5,109 nucleotides of DNA from a virus: positions 1-5,109 of the IMG/VR virus record IMGVR_UViG_3300029794_000105. One strand, written 5' to 3'. This document shows positions 1-5,109 of the stretch, piece after piece (within the stretch, counting starts at the first letter, position 1; each line of letters opens with the position of its first letter). The notes under the pieces were generated by a model, which made no database searches, was not told the DNA's origin, and worked only from the letters and a program-made list of their open reading frames with translations. The position numbers and the translations under genes were made by a program.

Positions 1-123
1 AGTAGCAGTAACAGTAGGGATGACATAATCAGTACTATCGTCAGGGTCTTCCTGTTCGAAACAGAAATTCTGCCAATGGTCCCAAACTAGACGATTCGGG
101 ACGAAGAAGAAGAACCAGTCGAG
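1..123. repeat. Terminal redundancy of the window: 1..123 is base-for-base identical to 4987..5109, so the genome is a 4986-nt circle and the window is longer than the replicon
   Basis: Direct comparison of the first 123 nt (agtagcagtaacagtaggga...ccagtcgag) with 4987..5109 shows an identical string. The minus-strand VP1 reading frame is continuous across this junction; 4986 is divisible by 3, so frame is preserved. Confidence 0.9.
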
Positions 124-351
124 ATAGATATTATCCATGATGGGCTTAACAGGAGTAGCCAAACGAGCGAAGTAATTGACAGACATCCTAGTGGTGTCGC
201 CAGGCAATACTTCGTCGACGAATACAGGTATGAGCTTGCCTGAGTCGAAAGTCGTCTTATAGACATGTGAGCGGTCGAATTTAGTGCGACGCATATACAT
301 TGCAGGAGCATCGCTGAAGCGATGACCTCTAACTCTAATTTTTCGAGCCAA
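1..351 (-). CDS. VP1: Major capsid protein VP1, N-terminal part. It is continuous with 3619..4986 around the circle, for a total of about 556 codons if it starts at TTG 351-349, or 539 if at ATG 300-298
   Basis: The minus frame with codon tops at n=0 mod 3 reads HFEEGEI-L(ttg 351)-ARKIRVRGHRFSDAPA-M(300)-Y-M(294)-RRTKFDRSHVYKTTFDSGKLIPVFVDEVLPGDTTRMSVNYFARLATPVKPIMDNIYLDWFFFFVPNR... The in-frame TAA at 375-373 bounds it. FDRSH...LPGDT is the gokushovirus VP1 N-terminal motif. The TTG at 351 is preceded by GAAGGTGA (356-363) at ideal spacing, whereas the ATG at 300 has no SD. Confidence 0.85.
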   Translation of the reverse strand, partial: MARKIRVRGHRFSDAPAMYMRRTKFDRSHVYKTTFDSGKLIPVFVDEVLPGDTTRMSVNYFARLATPVKPIMDNIYLDWFFFFVPNRLVWDHWQNFCFEQEDPDDSTDYVIPTVTAT

Positions 352-355
352 TATT

Positions 356-363
356 TCACCTTC
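356..363 (-). promoter_or_regulatory. Shine-Dalgarno GAAGGTGA, 4 nt upstream of the in-frame TTG at 351-349 (candidate VP1 initiation site)
   Basis: The minus-strand sequence is gaaGAAGGTGAaataTTGgct. It is complementary to the anti-SD core, with a 4-nt spacer between the SD and the TTG. Confidence 0.5.
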
Positions 364-372
364 TTCGAAGTG

Positions 373-412
373 TTAACCTAATAATTAACCTAAAGAAAAT
401 TATTATTAGGTT
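373..412. repeat. Direct repeat TTAACCTAA x2 (373-381 and 385-393, 12-bp period) plus an 11-bp inverted repeat AACCTAATAAT (375-385) / ATTATTAGGTT (402-412). Sits in the AT-rich non-coding region upstream of VP1
   Basis: Read directly: ttaacctaa taa ttaacctaa agaaaattattattaggtt. The reverse complement of 402-412 equals 375-385 exactly. Confidence 0.7.
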
Positions 413-427
413 TCAGATTAATATTGC

Positions 428-470
428 GTCACCTACGCCAGTTACATCAAGTAAGTAACTGGCTCGGTGA
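428..470. other. GC-rich imperfect hairpin (outer stem GTCACC/GGTGAC, inner 8-bp stem CCAGTTAC/GTAACTGG, 9-nt loop) immediately 3' of the VP3 stop, flanked at 415-426 by the palindrome AATATTAAT. Candidate rolling-circle origin or packaging structure
   Basis: Plus strand GTCACC tacg CCAGTTAC atcaagtaa GTAACTGG ctc GGTGAC. Both stem pairs are exact reverse complements. This is the only GC-rich structured element in the sole sizeable non-coding region of the genome. Confidence 0.5.
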
Positions 471-473
471 CGC

Positions 474-956
474 CTATTCTTGTATTTTTTTATTATTTTG
501 TTCTAAAGTGTTACTTTTTTCTTGTGTTTGTTCACTATTTACGGACTGTTGTGGTTTATCAAAGGTAGAATTGCTACCATACAGACCTTGTTGCTGGAGA
601 TATTCGAGCGTTTCAGGGTTATTTAATTGGCTGATGAAATTCATGGGATCGTGACCGTATTTAGCTCGAACGTAAGCGGGCAGACTGTAGAATTCTTCAC
701 GAACTCCGGAAACAAGCTCGAGAGCGGTACTATAGTCACCGGGAAGCGTTGCATCTCCGAACTGCAGATAAGCATACTGCGAACTATCGCCGAGATCGAG
801 AGTAGCTATGCCTTTCTGACCATCTGCATATTTATTAACAATGTAATTGATATCAGTTTCATCTTTTTCGTCCTGAACCGTGAGGGAGGGCATTGTGAAT
901 TCAATGCCGCAATGATCATGTTCTTCTACTGAGTCGTAAGCTGTCTTAAATTTCAT
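474..956 (-). CDS. VP3: Internal scaffolding protein VP3-like (160 aa, strongly acidic)
   Basis: ATG at 956-954 is preceded by a near-perfect SD AAGGAGGTGA (961-970) with a 4-nt spacer (aac before the ATG). The protein MKFKTAYDSVEEHDHCGIEFTMPSLTVQDEKDETDINYIVNKYADG... is acidic, of typical gokushovirus VP3 size, and sits directly upstream of VP1 after the intergenic region. Assigned from composition, size, synteny and a remembered resemblance to gokushovirus VP3 N-termini; not confirmed by search. Confidence 0.7.
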   Translation of the reverse strand: MKFKTAYDSVEEHDHCGIEFTMPSLTVQDEKDETDINYIVNKYADGQKGIATLDLGDSSQYAYLQFGDATLPGDYSTALELVSGVREEFYSLPAYVRAKYGHDPMNFISQLNNPETLEYLQQQGLYGSNSTFDKPQQSVNSEQTQEKSNTLEQNNKKIQE

Positions 957-960
957 AGTT

Positions 961-970
961 TCACCTCCTT
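961..970 (-). promoter_or_regulatory. Strong ribosome binding site AAGGAGGTGA for VP3
   Basis: Plus strand tcacctcctt is the reverse complement of AAGGAGGTGA, then aac, then the ATG. Confidence 0.7.
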
Positions 971-1004
971 TCGAATGCGCCTAGACGCGGCGGGCGTAGC
1001 GCAC

Positions 1005-1039
1005 AAAAAAAGGGCGATCTCCGTGAGATCGTCCTTTTT
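1005..1039. terminator. Bidirectional rho-independent terminator: A7, then a 10-bp stem (GGGCGATCTC / GAGATCGTCC, one G-T position), 3-nt loop, then T5. On the sense (minus) strand the hairpin is followed by U7
   Basis: aaaaaaaGGGCGATCTCcgtGAGATCGTCCttttt read directly. Located in the 109-nt gap between the ORF95 stop (1066) and the VP3 start (956). Confidence 0.6.
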
Positions 1040-1056
1040 CTGATACGCTCTATATT

Positions 1057-1085
1057 AGATTATCATTAGATAGAGTCATTGTCAA
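1057..1085 (-). promoter_or_regulatory. Sigma70-like promoter candidate on the sense strand: consensus -35 TTGACA (1085-1080), 17-nt spacer, -10 TAATCT (1062-1057)
   Basis: Minus strand TTGACAatgactctatctaatgaTAATCT. The -35 is perfect; the -10 retains A2 and T6 only. It is odd because the terminator hairpin lies about 20 nt downstream of the predicted start. Confidence 0.3.
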
Positions 1086-1353
1086 TATCCTGCACGTAAT
1101 CTACGGCGCGACCAACCAATACAGGAACGCGGGATTCGTCAGAACTTTCAATATAATAACGGCCATCAGAATCGCCAAGGTTACCGATGTAATAAAGACT
1201 AAAATCTTCAGGATAGCTATTAATAAGCGTCTTATCATCATTGCATAAACCCTCGAAAGCTCGCAGAGCGAGCATGTCATTATGGTAGACCTGTGGGGGG
1301 CTGAATTGTTCAGCCTTGGAGTCATAAATGGAATAGAGTCTCAGTGTCAACAT
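1066..1353 (-). CDS. Hypothetical protein, 95 aa, strongly acidic (about 17 D/E vs 7 K/R), unknown function. Occupies the VP4-VP3 accessory interval
   Basis: ATG at 1353-1351 is directly abutted by AAGGAG (cgaaAAGGAGatg; spacing is suboptimal, and a TTG second codon is an alternative). It overlaps the end of ORF94 by 32 nt in another frame and fills otherwise non-coding space in a compact genome. No recognisable motif. Confidence 0.5.
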   Translation of the reverse strand: MLTLRLYSIYDSKAEQFSPPQVYHNDMLALRAFEGLCNDDKTLINSYPEDFSLYYIGNLGDSDGRYYIESSDESRVPVLVGRAVDYVQDIDNDSI

Positions 1354-1606
1354 CTCCTTTTCGTAAGTGGATTATAAACCGACGAATCATAAGGTGCGTA
1401 GAATTAGGTATAACGAAATAATCAGAATCAAGTCGAATAACATTATAACCGTCAGGTTTGAGTCGATAGGCAGCGTATTTAGAACCTCTGAAAACGAACT
1501 TAAAGGGTATACCTTTATGTTTGCAAAAGGATTTGACGGCAGCAAATTCGCTAGAAAATCGTTCGATATAATCACCTTCTTTCTGACCTAATAATAACAC
1601 AATCAT
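1322..1606 (-). CDS. Hypothetical protein, 94 aa, in the position occupied by VP5 in chlamydiaphage-type gokushoviruses (immediately 3' of Rep). Translationally coupled to VP4 by an ATGA overlap
   Basis: Start ATG 1606-1604 overlaps the VP4 stop TGA 1605-1603. Upstream AAGGT is 6 nt from the ATG. Protein MIVLLLGQKEGDYIERFSSEFAAVKSFCKHKGIPFKF... is mildly basic with no TM segment. Confidence 0.55.
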   Translation of the reverse strand: MIVLLLGQKEGDYIERFSSEFAAVKSFCKHKGIPFKFVFRGSKYAAYRLKPDGYNVIRLDSDYFVIPNSTHLMIRRFIIHLRKGDVDTETLFHL

Positions 1607-2514
1607 AATACCTTGTCAAGCTTTCTGCCGAGAAAATGCTTATACTTACCTTCCTGAACGCGACAACGATCAATCAATCGCTCGAAAGTATTATTCTCCA
1701 AGTTATGAAGCATCTTCTCAATGCGATTATTACGAATGTATTCCATCCAGTGAGGATGTGTTTCATTGAATTTATTGTCGTAATAATGAGGAGGACGCAT
1801 CTTCTTACCGTTGATAACAACGAAATCATTAGCATAACACTCTTCACCATGCTCTTCAAGCCATTTTCCGCCTATGCCAGGACGATTGGATGCAAGCATA
1901 AACTCAGGCGTACGGCCATTATAGTGAGCAGCAGCTTTACTGCCAGTCTGCTTCTTCACTATGTAACGCGCGACATAGGCAGCAGCATCGAAACTAAAGT
2001 CGCCAATAAGATGCATACCGTATTTCCATATCTTGGAGAAGCGAGCAGAAGTATAAGTGCTATAACCGTCTGTACGGAACCGAAAAACTTTGTCATCAAA
2101 ATTAATATTAAACAATATATAATGATAATGGGGACGACCATGAAGTTCACCATATTCACCACAGCCGAGGAAGCGAATGCCATTGCCATACTCACGACGA
2201 AGATTTTTCATGAACGTCTGATGAAATTTCTTGCTCAAACTTCTATCGCTCGGCAGATGATAATCGTCGAAAGTACAAGTAACGAAAAAAGCAGAGGACG
2301 AAGTACGGGCTTCGTGAACAGCTCTGACAGCCCATTGACGAGAGTTTTCAAGTCGACAACCGATGCACTGCTTGCAAGAACAACGAATGAACCGACTATC
2401 GTTAGCAAGTTCAGGGTGAGAAGCCAAGCTGCCGTAGAAACTATAATGTTGTTTTCCGTTTTTCGTAAATGCTCCTTCGACCGGGTACATGAGAATAGGA
2501 TTGTAGCATACCAT
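1603..2514 (-). CDS. VP4: Replication initiation protein VP4 (rolling-circle Rep, phiX174 gpA-like), 303 aa from ATG 2514. The ORF track's start at 2523 is an upstream GTG
   Basis: RCR motif I is FFVTCTFDD. Motif II is GRPHYHYILF. Motif III has two tyrosines, AAYVARYIVKK (compare phiX174 A YVAKYVNKK). The N-terminal Cys cluster CSCKQCIGCR is typical of microvirus Rep. N-terminus MVCYNP fits the microvirus MxCxxP start. SD AGGTGA lies 5 nt upstream of ATG 2514. Confidence 0.95.
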   Translation of the reverse strand: MVCYNPILMYPVEGAFTKNGKQHYSFYGSLASHPELANDSRFIRCSCKQCIGCRLENSRQWAVRAVHEARTSSSAFFVTCTFDDYHLPSDRSLSKKFHQTFMKNLRREYGNGIRFLGCGEYGELHGRPHYHYILFNINFDDKVFRFRTDGYSTYTSARFSKIWKYGMHLIGDFSFDAAAYVARYIVKKQTGSKAAAHYNGRTPEFMLASNRPGIGGKWLEEHGEECYANDFVVINGKKMRPPHYYDNKFNETHPHWMEYIRNNRIEKMLHNLENNTFERLIDRCRVQEGKYKHFLGRKLDKVL

Positions 2515-2556
2515 ATTAATCACCTGTACCGATTGTATCAGGATTAAGTCAGAATG

Positions 2557-2667
2557 TCAAATCCTAAATCCACCTCGTCCTACTCTCTTGAAATTCCTAC
2601 GACGAGATCTAGAGGTGCGCTGAAAGAGACGGCGAGAACCTCGCTTAGACACGCGGCGTCTTTTCAT
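2557..2667 (-). CDS. 36-aa arginine-rich micro-protein (MKRRRVSKRGSRRLFQRTSRSRRRNFKRVGRGGFRI; 14 R + 3 K). Candidate DNA-binding/condensing protein analogous to phiX174 J / chlamydiaphage ORF8. Absent from the ORF track because of its length
   Basis: Hand translation of the minus strand: ggagggatactaaATGAaaagacgccgcgtgtctaagcga...aggattTGA. The ATG (2667-2665) overlaps the TGA stop of the 79-aa ORF (ATGA). GGAGGG sits 7 nt upstream. An in-frame TAA immediately precedes the ATG, so the start is unambiguous. Stop TGA at 2559-2557. Its position directly upstream of Rep matches ORF8 of chlamydiaphages. Confidence 0.6.
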   Translation of the reverse strand: MKRRRVSKRGSRRLFQRTSRSRRRNFKRVGRGGFRI

Positions 2668-2903
2668 TTAGTATCCCTCCAAGAACCGAAAAAACGGCTA
2701 GTTTTTTTAGAATCATTCTTATTAGAAATTGGCTCAACAAGTTTGTCAACATCGTGCGAAAAGTCGGATGCGACTTTACTGGCAAGCTGAGTAGATGAAG
2801 TAGGACGACCTTTAAGTGCTTCGATCAGATCACAAACTTCCTGAATAAATGGAACAACAACGGTGACAATGAAAGTTAGAATCATAGTAGTTTTGTTAGA
2901 CAT
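2664..2903 (-). CDS. 79-aa small membrane protein: N-terminal single transmembrane helix (MILTFIVTVVVPFIQEV) and a hydrophilic C-terminal tail. Function unknown; candidate lysis or entry-associated protein
   Basis: ATG 2903-2901. The VP2 stop TAA (2920-2918) sits inside its SD (TAAGGAGtgcaaaatacATG). Downstream it is coupled by ATGA to the Arg-rich ORF. Same strand as all real genes, and it fills the VP2-VP4 interval. Confidence 0.6.
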   Translation of the reverse strand: MSNKTTMILTFIVTVVVPFIQEVCDLIEALKGRPTSSTQLASKVASDFSHDVDKLVEPISNKNDSKKTSRFFGSWRDTK

Positions 2904-2917
2904 GTATTTTGCACTCC

Positions 2918-3604
2918 TTACTTGAAAAGATAACCAATACCACGAAGAATATGGCCAAGACCTGAATTGCCAACACCTAACGAGTCATAGAAGTCAGCTT
3001 CCTGCTTCGAAAGACGGGCATTTTGGGCCGCGAAGCCCGCGGCAGAATTGGACTGATTAGCTGAAGCAATGTTGGAAAGTATGCCTGAAGAGAGATAGGA
3101 TCCTTGAAGCCTTAGGTTCTGCAGCTCCTGATCCATTCGCTGAAGCTCATAGCCAAGGCGTTTTTCGTAAGTCTGCTCGGCGAGATTAAGATTATTAGCC
3201 TTAATACCATTATCTAGAACTATTCCATGGGTCGCCTGACGCGTAGAATCAGCTTCTGCGACGTTTTTCTCAATTTGAGACACGGCAAGATGCTCGGCAT
3301 TCTTAGCCTGCCGTTCAGCGGCACTAGCAGCTCTAGCAGAGTTCATGGTAGAACCGATATCACTCATTCCGACAGAAGCAGCTGAAGCTCCAGCTATAGA
3401 ACCGCCTATACCATTAGTCGCAGCAAGAATAGGGTTAAGACCAGCTTTGCGCATATCTTCAACAGCCCATTGATAACGTTGTTTATAATTTTCAACGTTC
3501 CAAGCGTTAGCCTGTGCGGCGTTGGAAGAATTATAATGATTCTGAACTGCGGATCCAAAGATGGAACCAGCAACGCTGCCTAACGTATTAGAAAGCCATG
3601 ACAT
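2918..3604 (-). CDS. VP2: Minor capsid / DNA pilot protein VP2, 228 aa, Gly/Ala/Ser-rich
   Basis: Contains the hallmark gokushovirus VP2 block NAWNVENYKQRYQWAVEDMRKAGLNPILAA (N.W..E....Y...V.DM.KAGLNP.LA). ATG 3604-3602 is preceded by AAGGAG with a 10-nt spacer. Starts 14 nt after the VP1 stop. Confidence 0.88.
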   Translation of the reverse strand: MSWLSNTLGSVAGSIFGSAVQNHYNSSNAAQANAWNVENYKQRYQWAVEDMRKAGLNPILAATNGIGGSIAGASAASVGMSDIGSTMNSARAASAAERQAKNAEHLAVSQIEKNVAEADSTRQATHGIVLDNGIKANNLNLAEQTYEKRLGYELQRMDQELQNLRLQGSYLSSGILSNIASANQSNSAAGFAAQNARLSKQEADFYDSLGVGNSGLGHILRGIGYLFK

Positions 3605-3618
3605 ATAACCAACTCCTT

Positions 3619-5109
3619 CTAGAAGTGATCGACAAGACCAGGTGTGCCGAACATAGGCATAGGACGCACGGTAGTATAACGGAAGCCTATGTCGAGCAAA
3701 AACTCAGGCTCATCCTGAACAGCGACAATGCGCTTAATAGGTGGATTCTCGGTAATGAATTCCTCATTCAGAGTAGGCGCATTGCTGAAATACTGGGACA
3801 GGTGCCAAACGTCAAGGTTACCATCAACTACAGAACTACGGAATTTCCCGGTAATCTGCGAAGGTTTGTAACGATATTCAGCATAACGCTCCTGGTAACC
3901 GAAAACAGTAGTATCATCTTTAGTACCCTGAGCGTAAATCTCGCGAAGCTCAATAGCCTGTTCACCAAGGTGTGCGAATGTCGGCCAATAGAAATCATAG
4001 ACAGTAGAACGAAGCCACATCTTATTAATGCCTTGTTGATAGGTAAGGTCGGCGCGGGCACAGACGAAGCCTATAATATAGCCGTGTTCGACGAAAGATT
4101 TCGTAAATCCATGGAATCTAGACGCAGTAACACCGTAAGCTGAGAGATTGCCTTGAGGAGAAGTGTTGTCGGTCGCAGAAGTCTGAGCTATTGGGTTGAC
4201 GTTGACCATCTTAGTGAAAGAACCGAGAAACTCAGGGCGCTGAAGACGAGCGTCCGGAGAAACTACACCGAAGAAAGAGCGAAGCACTTCAGTGTACCGA
4301 CTGCCACCGCGAGCAAGGCGCTCGTAGAACTTCTGCATCTGAAAAGCAGTACGAAGACTATTGATAGTGAAAATGCTAGAAGAATCCAAGTCGGCATAAG
4401 CAGATTTAGAAAGCCATGAAGAACCGGGTTGAGCAGTAATAGTAGACACACTAGAATTGTTGATAGAGTGACCAGCTATAGAAACACTATAACCACCTTG
4501 ATACTGTAATGTACCGCTTCCAGTATATACATCATGAACACCGCCATCTTTCGAAAGCTGAGCAGCGCCTAAGCTATTATTAGACTGTTGAACGAAATAG
4601 CCCGAAACAGGCGAAGGGTCAACTAGAGTAGCGGTGCCGGCAAGGCCTATAGATACACCGGGTCCTTTCTGTGTCCAAGGAAGGGCCGAAGTAAAGTAAT
4701 CATGACGCTTGCCGCGAGGTGGGCAAGCAAGACCAGCTACTAAAGTAGTGTCGGAACTGAATACCCATGAAGGCTGATCGGAAGAACGAGAGGAATCCAA
4801 TGCTTCATTGGTATCGCCTTTCTGGATTTTGACAGACTTCTGGAGATTTTCATCTCTGAACCATTCGTTCCAAATGAGGTATACAGCGCGGAATGGAAGA
4901 GCACTAACGGTTAGATTACCAGGCGTATTCACGGGCAAGCCGAAATAGTCCCATAGAGAACCTACGTAATTATTATCGCTGTTAGCAGTAGCAGTAACAG
5001 TAGGGATGACATAATCAGTACTATCGTCAGGGTCTTCCTGTTCGAAACAGAAATTCTGCCAATGGTCCCAAACTAGACGATTCGGGACGAAGAAGAAGAA
5101 CCAGTCGAG
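3619..5109 (-). CDS. VP1: Major capsid protein VP1 (Microviridae F/VP1 family), C-terminal ~496 codons. The ORF runs off the window end and continues at window position 123 downward because the genome is circular
   Basis: Hand translation upstream of the reported TTG at 4938 shows the frame stays open to 5109: ...LDWFFFFVPNRLVWDHWQNFCFEQEDPDDSTDYVIPTVTATANSDNNYVGSLWDYFGLPVNTPGNLTVSALPFRAVYLIWNEWFRDENL... This matches the conserved gokushovirus VP1 block (FFVPNRLxW, DYxGLP, ALPFRAY..NE.FRD). The C-terminus ends ...RYTTVRPMPMFGTPGLVDHF with a TAG stop at 3619-3621. The 4938 start in the ORF track is an artifact of the window edge. Confidence 0.93.
   Translation of the reverse strand, partial: LDWFFFFVPNRLVWDHWQNFCFEQEDPDDSTDYVIPTVTATANSDNNYVGSLWDYFGLPVNTPGNLTVSALPFRAVYLIWNEWFRDENLQKSVKIQKGDTNEALDSSRSSDQPSWVFSSDTTLVAGLACPPRGKRHDYFTSALPWTQKGPGVSIGLAGTATLVDPSPVSGYFVQQSNNSLGAAQLSKDGGVHDVYTGSGTLQYQGGYSVSIAGHSINNSSVSTITAQPGSSWLSKSAYADLDSSSIFTINSLRTAFQMQKFYERLARGGSRYTEVLRSFFGVVSPDARLQRPEFLGSFTKMVNVNPIAQTSATDNTSPQGNLSAYGVTASRFHGFTKSFVEHGYIIGFVCARADLTYQQGINKMWLRSTVYDFYWPTFAHLGEQAIELREIYAQGTKDDTTVFGYQERYAEYRYKPSQITGKFRSSVVDGNLDVWHLSQYFSNAPTLNEEFITENPPIKRIVAVQDEPEFLLDIGFRYTTVRPMPMFGTPGLVDHF
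4987..5109. repeat. Second copy of the terminal redundancy (equals 1..123)
   Basis: Same observation as feature 1..123. Confidence 0.9.

Follow-up and report, generated by a model that had tools for sequence, protein, structure and literature searches.

Protein E of phiX174 is an amurin, a phage inhibitor of murein synthesis, which inhibits MraY, depends on SlyD and lies in the membrane with its N terminus out and its C terminus in, an orientation consistent with its charges. Gokushoviruses dominate the single-stranded DNA fraction of gut viromes and their exit from the host is an acknowledged gap; the literature agrees with an earlier, sequence-only reading of the DNA studied here that they have no well-characterised lysis gene, since none has been reported and one of the phiX174 type is lacking (PMC7062461, PMC3394797). 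In microvirus families 2, 7 and 14, lysis-associated accessory genes are found between VP1 and VP4 (PMC9239249). The DNA analysed here, called the window, is the whole 5,109-nt stretch of IMG/VR record IMGVR_UViG_3300029794_000105, and the subject of this study is ORF79, a 79-residue open reading frame (ORF) on its minus strand (2664-2903) between the genes for the DNA pilot protein VP2 and a small VP8/J-like protein. ORF79 is a conserved gene of one gut gokushovirus clade, and a late role in lysis is the function tentatively favoured for it.

A conserved gene at the VP2/VP8 junction

ORF79 starts with ATG and encodes a protein of 79 aa, MSNKTTMILTFIVTVVVPFIQEVCDLIEALKGRPTSSTQLASKVASDFSHDVDKLVEPISNKNDSKKTSRFFGSWRDTK, whose tryptic peptides include VASDFSHDVDK, LVEPISNK and GRPTSSTQLASK. 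A Shine-Dalgarno (SD) sequence, AAGGAG (2914-2919, minus strand), precedes the ATG by 10 nt and extends into the stop codon of VP2, TAA (2918-2920), while the ORF79 stop codon TGA shares the tetranucleotide ATGA (2664-2667) with the ATG of the VP8/J-like gene. These are the only overlaps with neighbouring genes, and ORF79 is not overprinted. It was intact in all 54 circular relatives compared by whole-genome alignment, and it was uninterrupted and started with ATG at each of the 95 loci that yielded a homologue. The SD sequence was AAGGAG or AGGAG in 54/54 close relatives and of the GAGG/GGAGG type in all five distant clade members. Most coding-strand ORFs in alternative frames were intact in only 1-18 of the 54 relatives, and two ORFs in the +1 frame of VP4 were intact in 43 and 49. 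The ratio of nonsynonymous to synonymous substitution rates (dN/dS) for ORF79 was 0.15 (Nei-Gojobori, 84 distinct sequences). Since the frame is intact in 54/54 relatives, dN/dS is low and the SD sequence is conserved, ORF79 is a real coding gene under strong purifying selection. Two further ORFs were ruled out as the cause of this conservation, one antisense (2554-2790, plus strand) and one in the +1 frame inside ORF79, which were intact in only 4 and 14 of the 54 relatives, respectively. The strong SD sequence and the ATGA coupling to VP8 imply that expression is probably comparable to that of the structural proteins. The sequence-only reading had described a coding-strand ORF that looked expressed, with an SD sequence overlapping the VP2 stop, and both descriptions hold. 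It had also placed the ORF between VP2 and Rep with ATGA coupling to the next gene; the coupling stands, but the next gene is the VP8/J-like gene (2557-2667, minus strand), and Rep follows after it.

Searches with ORF79 identified it as a member of PHROG 23638 (E 8.8e-43, residues 1-79 on positions 1-79 of the 79-position profile), for which the function is blank. Family members are present in GenBank as 'hypothetical protein' at the same genomic position (ARQ16029.1, ARQ16039.1 and AYQ58156.1, from KX513872, KX513874 and MG883714), and tblastn located ORF79 in 20 GenBank gokushovirus records, either annotated in this way or left unannotated. A protein search gave 489 clusters at 90% identity, every contig being about 5 kb, and 261 ORF79 loci were found in IMG/VR. 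A profile search of 1.84 billion representative proteins returned 31 matches, of which about 25 were genuine clusters of 75-100 aa; the surplus matches were discarded as frameshifted or chimeric gene calls or as low-complexity sequence, and neither cellular relatives nor domain fusions were found in this search. A contig of 10787 nt (JAHXDV010000481.1 of GCA_019971555.1) holds two inverted copies of a relative's genome in mirror-image gene order; it was ruled out as a larger element and regarded as an inverted-duplicate assembly artefact. The family is already catalogued, yet it is uncharacterised and has been ignored, with many GenBank records lacking an annotation for it.

In every examined genome carrying ORF79, the gene lies directly 3′ of VP2 and before the Arg-rich VP8 gene. 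In a VP1 neighbour-joining tree, the genomes with ORF79 group as one monophyletic clade of gut gokushoviruses, and EC6098, Chp2, phiMH2K and five further gokushoviruses whose VP1 is about equally distant lack the gene. ORF79 is an accessory gene of this one clade, inserted at the VP2/VP8 junction. A survey of related genomes, which found ORF79 in a single monophyletic clade and always after VP2, agrees with the lineage-specific insertion that the sequence-only reading had proposed. The junction has been described as a variable region by Kirchberger and Ochman (PMC7062461). Small hydrophobic ORFs were present there in two of six gokushoviruses without ORF79, and VP8 adjoins VP2 in the other four. 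These two ORFs, of 36 aa in MN379642 (2226-2336 of locus L099) and 26 aa in KT264824 (2660-2740 of locus L102), are unrelated to ORF79; small hydrophobic ORFs appear to have arrived at this junction repeatedly. Genes of 36-40 aa whose products end in RGG(F/Y/I)R(I/L/A) come after ORF79 or VP2 in all examined relatives.

Anatomy of the ORF79 protein and its 3′ end

Conservation along ORF79 is modular and distinguishes an N-terminal module, a linker and a C-terminal motif. The N-terminal module (codons 1-32; 2808-2903, minus strand) begins MSNK, so that K4 is followed by an uncharged, Thr-rich run of 17 residues, T5-Q21 (2841-2891), that includes an invariant P18. An acidic amphipathic part with E22, D25 and E28 comes next, and the module ends at G32. 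Over these codons the proportion of synonymous differences (pS) was 0.44 and that of nonsynonymous differences (pN) 0.013, giving a dN/dS of 0.019. Since pN is low and synonymous variation, also measured as entropy, is normal, the constraint acts on the protein. Within the clade the module, at 56-75% identity, equals VP1 (52-65%) in conservation and far surpasses VP4, VP2, VP3 and VP5 (32-60%). Identity over the whole of ORF79 tracks that of VP2, at 80% versus 80-82% in close relatives and 38-56% versus 39-60% in distant ones. The linker (codons 33-68; 2700-2807, minus strand) is variable, with a dN/dS of 0.39 and indels in the family alignments; its length differs between clades, and family representatives range from 75 to 100 aa. 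The C-terminal motif, S-R-F-F-G in the window (codons 69-73; 2685-2699, minus strand), has the family consensus (W/Y/F/S)-S-R-F-(L/F/I). S69, R70 and F71 are invariant in both family alignments (A1 and A3), yet in distant clades they are encoded by different codons (AGC, TCT, TCC or TCA for Ser; CGT, CGA or AGA for Arg; TTT or TTC for Phe), so that here too the constraint is on the protein. The residues invariant throughout the family are I8, L9, F11, P18, F19, D25, I27, G32 and S69-R70-F71.

AlphaFold2, run on the family alignment, predicted one continuous helix over residues 3-31 with a predicted local distance difference test (pLDDT) score of 84-94, a second helix at 38-56 with low confidence (linker pLDDT 45-57) and a disordered tail. 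For the window protein, the Kyte-Doolittle maximum over 19 residues was 1.98 and the Wimley-White octanol minimum over 19 residues was -5.7 kcal/mol. Hydropathy was also surveyed in 19 diverse ORF79-family representatives. Their Kyte-Doolittle 19-residue maxima were 1.58-1.98 (n=19) and at least 1.76 in 18/19, the lowest being that of P0255 at 1.58, and their octanol minima ranged from -4.2 to -8.8 kcal/mol. The uncharged run was 16-17 residues long, save in one representative with 20. The hydropathy scales together with the AlphaFold2 helix make it likely, although not certain, that the N-terminal segment spans the membrane stably. The 17-residue, Pro-containing hydrophobic helix of the sequence-only reading is recovered in T5-Q21, the invariant P18 and the AlphaFold2 helix at 3-31; the tail is charged as it had stated, but with 10 Lys or Arg and 9 Asp or Glu residues it is nearly neutral overall.

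Topology was read from the flank charges by the positive-inside rule. The charge of the N-terminal flank was +1 (0 in three of the 19 representatives), and that of the first 15 residues past the uncharged run was -1 or -2 (+1 in two). Because K4 lies on the N-terminal side and E22, D25 and E28 lie on the C-terminal side, an N-in/C-out topology, with the tail outside the cytoplasm, is weakly favoured by prediction. A signal peptide was ruled out, since no small residues are conserved at -1/-3 past the helix (the putative -1 residue is A, S or M), and a lipoprotein was ruled out by the lack of a conserved Cys. Met1 and Met7 resemble the pair of a dual start, and M7 is invariant in the close clade, but it is replaced by A, I, L or V in other clades and no SD site precedes it; the pair does not form a conserved dual-start motif.

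The 3′ end of ORF79 is occupied by a near-invariant nucleotide block (2664-2714, minus strand; GATTCTAAAAAAACTAGCCGTTTTTTCGGTTCTTGGAGGGATACTAAATGA), whose per-base entropy of 0.06-0.15 across the 54 relatives is the lowest in the genome. Synonymous entropy was 0.19-0.28 for codons 51-79 versus 0.7-1.0 for codons 1-30. The block includes the VP8 SD sequence GGAGG(G) (2675-2680) and the ATGA, and its conservation reaches about 40 nt upstream beyond the VP8 SD and start. Its predicted RNA and DNA folds were no stabler than those of shuffled sequences (z-scores of about 0), which rules out structure as the explanation for its invariance. Only the sub-clade of the window has the block, distant clades lacking it, and its role could lie in translational coupling or, as a cis-acting signal, in replication or packaging.

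A candidate lysis role and its rivals

None of the ORFs of the window has a peptidase, endolysin or muralytic enzyme domain detectable with Pfam, PHROG or NCBIfam, and the additional ORFs of four clade relatives gave no PHROG match. Of the remaining window ORFs, all but the non-hydrophobic ORF94 correspond to VP1-5 or VP8. Lysis was rated the most likely role of ORF79 because no muralytic enzyme was found in the window and its other genes are assigned or non-hydrophobic, and because the VP1-VP4 interval hosts lysis-associated genes elsewhere while no gokushovirus lysis gene is known. Judged from sequence against entry or assembly and against exclusion, a lysis role is plausible, and ORF79 as the late envelope-directed lysis effector of its clade is our tentative preference over the rival explanations.

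As such an effector, ORF79 would be a small bitopic membrane protein with T5-Q21 in the cytoplasmic membrane. The second half of the helix would hold conserved acidic residues just outside the membrane, and the variable linker would display the C-terminal S-R-F-hydrophobic motif. The protein, probably made late with VP1, VP2 and VP8, would act on the host envelope and free the progeny. In an amurin-like mechanism, the conserved helix face would bind to and inhibit a conserved, membrane-located stage in the supply of cell-wall precursors, whereas in a holin-like mechanism an oligomeric lesion would collapse the membrane potential and unleash host autolysins. Since the helix face, which includes E22 and D25, is nearly invariant, the specific-partner, amurin-like model is slightly favoured. 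The conservation of this face points to a specific partner, which could be either a conserved host membrane enzyme or ORF79 itself.

Several considerations weigh against a lysis role. ORF79 has no homology to any characterised lysis protein, and its hydrophobic segment is short (17 residues), moderately hydrophobic, rich in Thr and Ser, and interrupted by Pro. Fast evolution is the rule among known single-gene lysis proteins and holins, and the conservation of ORF79 along its entire length is unusual in comparison. Its position in the VP1-VP2-x-VP8 morphogenesis block, its strong SD sequence and its coupling to VP8 would be at least equally expected of a protein with a structural or assembly role. 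The isolated gokushoviruses EC6098, Chp2 and phiMH2K have no counterpart of ORF79, and EC6098 lyses its host in culture (PMC7062461). Since EC6098 does so without ORF79, the general gokushovirus lysis mechanism may lie elsewhere, which would leave ORF79 free for another role.

A more specific proposal, which we consider rather doubtful, is that ORF79 represents a new single-gene lysis or envelope-breaching family of a gokushovirus clade infecting Gram-positive Clostridia, in an orientation opposite to that of phiX174 E. With an N-in anchor, the acidic juxtamembrane helix and the S-R-F-hydrophobic motif would act on the outer face of the membrane, and their possible targets would be lipid-II flipping or polymerisation, or autolysin control. 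To our knowledge, no microvirus has been isolated from such hosts.

The structural setting of the gene raises the possibility, itself unlikely, that ORF79 is a morphogenesis or entry helper, a virion- or assembly-associated partner of the pilot protein VP2. It might then be a membrane-active peptide co-packaged with VP2 that assists in building or inserting the DNA conduit, or a membrane tether that docks onto procapsids through its C-terminal SRF-hydrophobic motif. ORF79 is always found between VP2 and the DNA-binding VP8, inside the structural block, its strong SD sequence and ATGA coupling to VP8 imply structural-level expression, and its overall divergence tracks that of VP2. The conserved C-terminal motif is aromatic and basic, and the C-termini of phiX174 B and J bind coat protein. 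However, such a protein is not listed in any gokushovirus virion study, isolated gokushoviruses assemble and infect without ORF79, and ORF79 has no similarity to VP2, VP3 or VP8. In addition, the predicted N-in/C-out topology would place the motif outside the cytoplasm, away from procapsids.

It is rather unlikely that the lysis gene lies elsewhere, in a hydrophobic ORF in the +1 frame of VP4 or in a core protein, and that ORF79, like phiX174 K, has a dispensable, modulating role. The very hydrophobic VP4 +1 ORF (1959-2195, minus strand; 78 codons, GTG start) was the one uninterrupted in 49/54 relatives, and within its bounds synonymous variation in VP4 is suppressed at codons 121-160 (about 2043-2163). 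Hydrophobic VP4 +1 ORFs are present at the same place in KX513874, KT264820, KT264821, the contig of a Clostridiales metagenome-assembled genome (MAG), EC6098 and phiMH2K, and the positionally analogous orfN of phiMH2K is annotated 'similar to phiX174 E and K'. An ORF so distributed would account for lysis by gokushoviruses without ORF79. Its length, however, is expected from composition (median of 81 codons in synonymous-codon shuffles, P = 0.57) and was ruled out as coding evidence on that basis, and the hydrophobic character of the frame stems from T-rich third codon positions. It has no SD site and no family match, and a replication origin at that place would explain the reduced synonymous variation just as well. 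The ORF overlaps with the conserved HUH part of Rep, a region in which ORFs without coding function are known to be maintained among phiX174 relatives (PMC9865509). The VP4 +1 ORF may be an overprinted gene, the replication origin or a by-product of conserved Rep motifs.

Exclusion is a frequent role of small phage membrane proteins with one membrane pass, among them T4 Imm and Sp and HK97 gp15. ORF79 could in principle be an inner-membrane superinfection exclusion or host-manipulation factor rather than a lysis effector, blocking DNA delivery by related phages or perturbing division or defence. The clade-specific, accessory nature of the gene is consistent with such a role, as is the conserved helix face, which suggests a specific membrane partner. 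Yet non-essential genes are rare in a 5-kb lytic genome and ORF79 was never lost in about 100 sampled relatives, and late expression with the structural block fits an early exclusion role poorly. EC6098 shows superinfection immunity (PMC7062461) and does so without ORF79. Exclusion or host manipulation is considered distinctly unlikely. A match of ORF79 to the PADLOC 4TM effector model was sub-threshold (E 0.0099) and was regarded as noise. Finally, a soluble protein with its N-terminal helix buried in a helical oligomer, such as a coiled-coil adaptor or scaffold-like factor, would suit the Thr/Ser- and beta-branched-rich uncharged run of only 17 residues with its central Pro, the a/d/e-like stripe of conserved positions over helix 8-32 (E22 and D25 included) and the AlphaFold2 helix-loop-helix, but it is very unlikely given hydropathy above the usual transmembrane thresholds in 18/19 representatives, an N-terminal position and single flanking Lys typical of signal anchors, and a fold search without a significant match to soluble helical proteins.

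A lytic function, if confirmed, would make ORF79 a new protein antibiotic, possibly with a new target and perhaps active on Clostridia. It offers a cloneable 79-residue lysis candidate for one abundant gut clade, in which P18, E22, D25 and S69-R70-F71 are the residues of interest. If it is a structural or exclusion factor, it would still explain what sets the clade apart.

Genome context, host and relation to known proteins

Because both ends of the window repeat exactly over 123 nt (1-123 and 4987-5109), the window is a complete circular gokushovirus genome with a unit of 4986 nt, assembled with terminal redundancy. The minus strand carries all of its genes. VP1 (Phage_F, E 4e-121) wraps the window ends and across the junction is about 572 aa long with a TTG start near 351, or 555 aa from an ATG at 300. 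VP2 (2918-3604) matches phrog_8693 (E 4e-78). The VP8/J-like gene, encoding an Arg-rich DNA-binding protein of 36 aa, matches phrog_10695 weakly and is followed by VP4/Rep (1603-2523), ORF94 (1322-1606), VP5 (1066-1353) and the VP3 scaffold gene (474-956; PF09675, E 5e-23; phrog_1642, E 1e-39). The VP1 hypervariable loop (about 4380-4650, minus strand) has a per-base entropy of 1.1-1.7 across relatives versus about 0.3 elsewhere, as expected for the gokushovirus 'mushroom' protrusion. ORF94, with 94 codons between VP4 and VP5, is unassigned: it gave no match in Pfam, PHROG or NCBIfam and has no transmembrane segment. Relatives differ in its start, with codon 10 of the consensus being a stop, and part of it (about 1493-1553) ranks among the most variable sequences of the genome when the VP1 hypervariable loop is set aside. 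ORF94 was not detected by tblastn in distant clades, where other unassigned ORFs occupy its position.

A sigma-70-type promoter-like sequence (2532-2560, minus strand) consists of TTGACA, a 17-nt spacer and TACAAT with an extended -10 element, 11/12 positions matching. It is almost invariant in relatives, and its -35 element overlaps the VP8 stop. Since the -10 element ends about 9-17 nt before the VP4 start, VP4 mRNA would be nearly leaderless. A second promoter-like site, also with 11/12 matches, is located at 1619-1591, and the intergenic DNA between VP5 and VP3 contains a hairpin that resembles a terminator (1015-1031, minus strand; CGATCTCACGGAGATCG and then CCCTTTTTTT). The hairpin and the two promoter-like sites suggest an early unit (VP4, ORF94 and VP5) apart from a late unit (VP3, VP1, VP2, ORF79 and VP8).

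A strong GGAGG-type SD sequence precedes most genes, and together with the near-consensus TTGACA-17-TACAAT promoter it argues against Bacteroidetes as hosts. The only match among 185,579 species-representative genomes was SFFE01000042.1, a stand-alone contig of 5535 nt in a 'Clostridiales bacterium' MAG, and no prophage context was found for the ORF79 clade. In one 15.8-kb contig (IMGVR_UViG_3300008383_000153, here L064), the genome of a relative (1-4384 of the locus) abuts cellular DNA (4385-9288). The phage part extends from 30 nt before VP3 through VP4 to the first ~35 codons of ORF94, and the cellular part encodes a CsrA-like protein (recognised by eye), a sigma-70 factor, RelB, ArdA, TcpC and a response regulator, genes of a Clostridia-type integrative and conjugative element. 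The TcpC of L064 is 70-72% identical to genes of C. difficile (Clostridioides), Vescimonas and C. perfringens plasmids. Its junction lies inside ORF94, and L064 could represent a truncated phage genome integrated into a Clostridia mobile element or else a chimeric assembly. Clostridia are weakly indicated as the host.

ORF79 had no match in Pfam, NCBIfam, PADLOC or the PDB sequences, and a BFVD fold search gave nothing significant. Alignment of the family (A3) with phiX174 E by hhalign had a probability of 0.3% over 6 columns, and with phiX174 K and phiMH2K orfN the probabilities were 0.8% and 0.1%. Protein E is present in MraY complexes in the PDB, and the PDB sequence search, which should reveal any deposited E chain, gave no match. 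By these comparisons, ORF79 appears not to be a member of the phiX174 E family. The two are nevertheless alike as small microvirus proteins (91 aa for E, 79 aa for ORF79) with an N-terminal hydrophobic helix and a conserved Pro at similar depth (P21 in E, P18 in ORF79); both genes lie immediately upstream of a J/VP8-type gene, and neither genome has a muralytic enzyme. The statement of the sequence-only reading that ORF79 has exactly the architecture of E was overstated, and its interpretation as a whole is partly supported. The uncharged segment is 24 residues in E versus 17 in ORF79, with Kyte-Doolittle maxima of 2.79 and 1.98, and the charge of the C-terminal flank is +5 versus -1. The tail is basic in E (net charge +11) and near-neutral in ORF79 (+1). 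These opposite flank and tail charges lead to a predicted topology for ORF79 that is opposite to that of E. Furthermore, E is overprinted in gene D, whereas ORF79 stands alone with a strong SD sequence, and ORF79, unlike E, has a conserved C-terminal motif.

Other small phage proteins show partial likeness to ORF79. phiX174 K and phiMH2K orfN are also small hydrophobic accessory proteins of Microviridae with uncertain roles, but both are overprinted, whereas ORF79 is not and is under much stronger purifying selection. At the position of ORF79 Chp2 carries the VP3 scaffold gene, and ORF79 matched neither Chlamy_scaf nor phrog_1642. The M15-peptidase lysis modules of other microviruses are likewise accessory genes between the VP1/VP2 block and VP4, but ORF79 has no enzymatic domain and is mostly helix and disordered tail. 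One-transmembrane holins and holin-only lysis systems, the latter reliant on host autolysins, resemble ORF79 in being small, in having one hydrophobic helix and a charged, hydrophilic C-terminal part, and in late expression, which is probable for ORF79; the Thr/Ser-rich helix face of ORF79 could line an oligomeric lesion. Unlike holin genes, ORF79 has no adjoining endolysin gene, its neighbours being VP2 and VP8; it had no holin match in Pfam, PHROG or NCBIfam, and its best holin fold match (E = 3) is meaningless. With the class of single-gene lysis proteins, ORF79 shares a small size, a predicted membrane domain and a phage genome without a recognisable muralytic enzyme.

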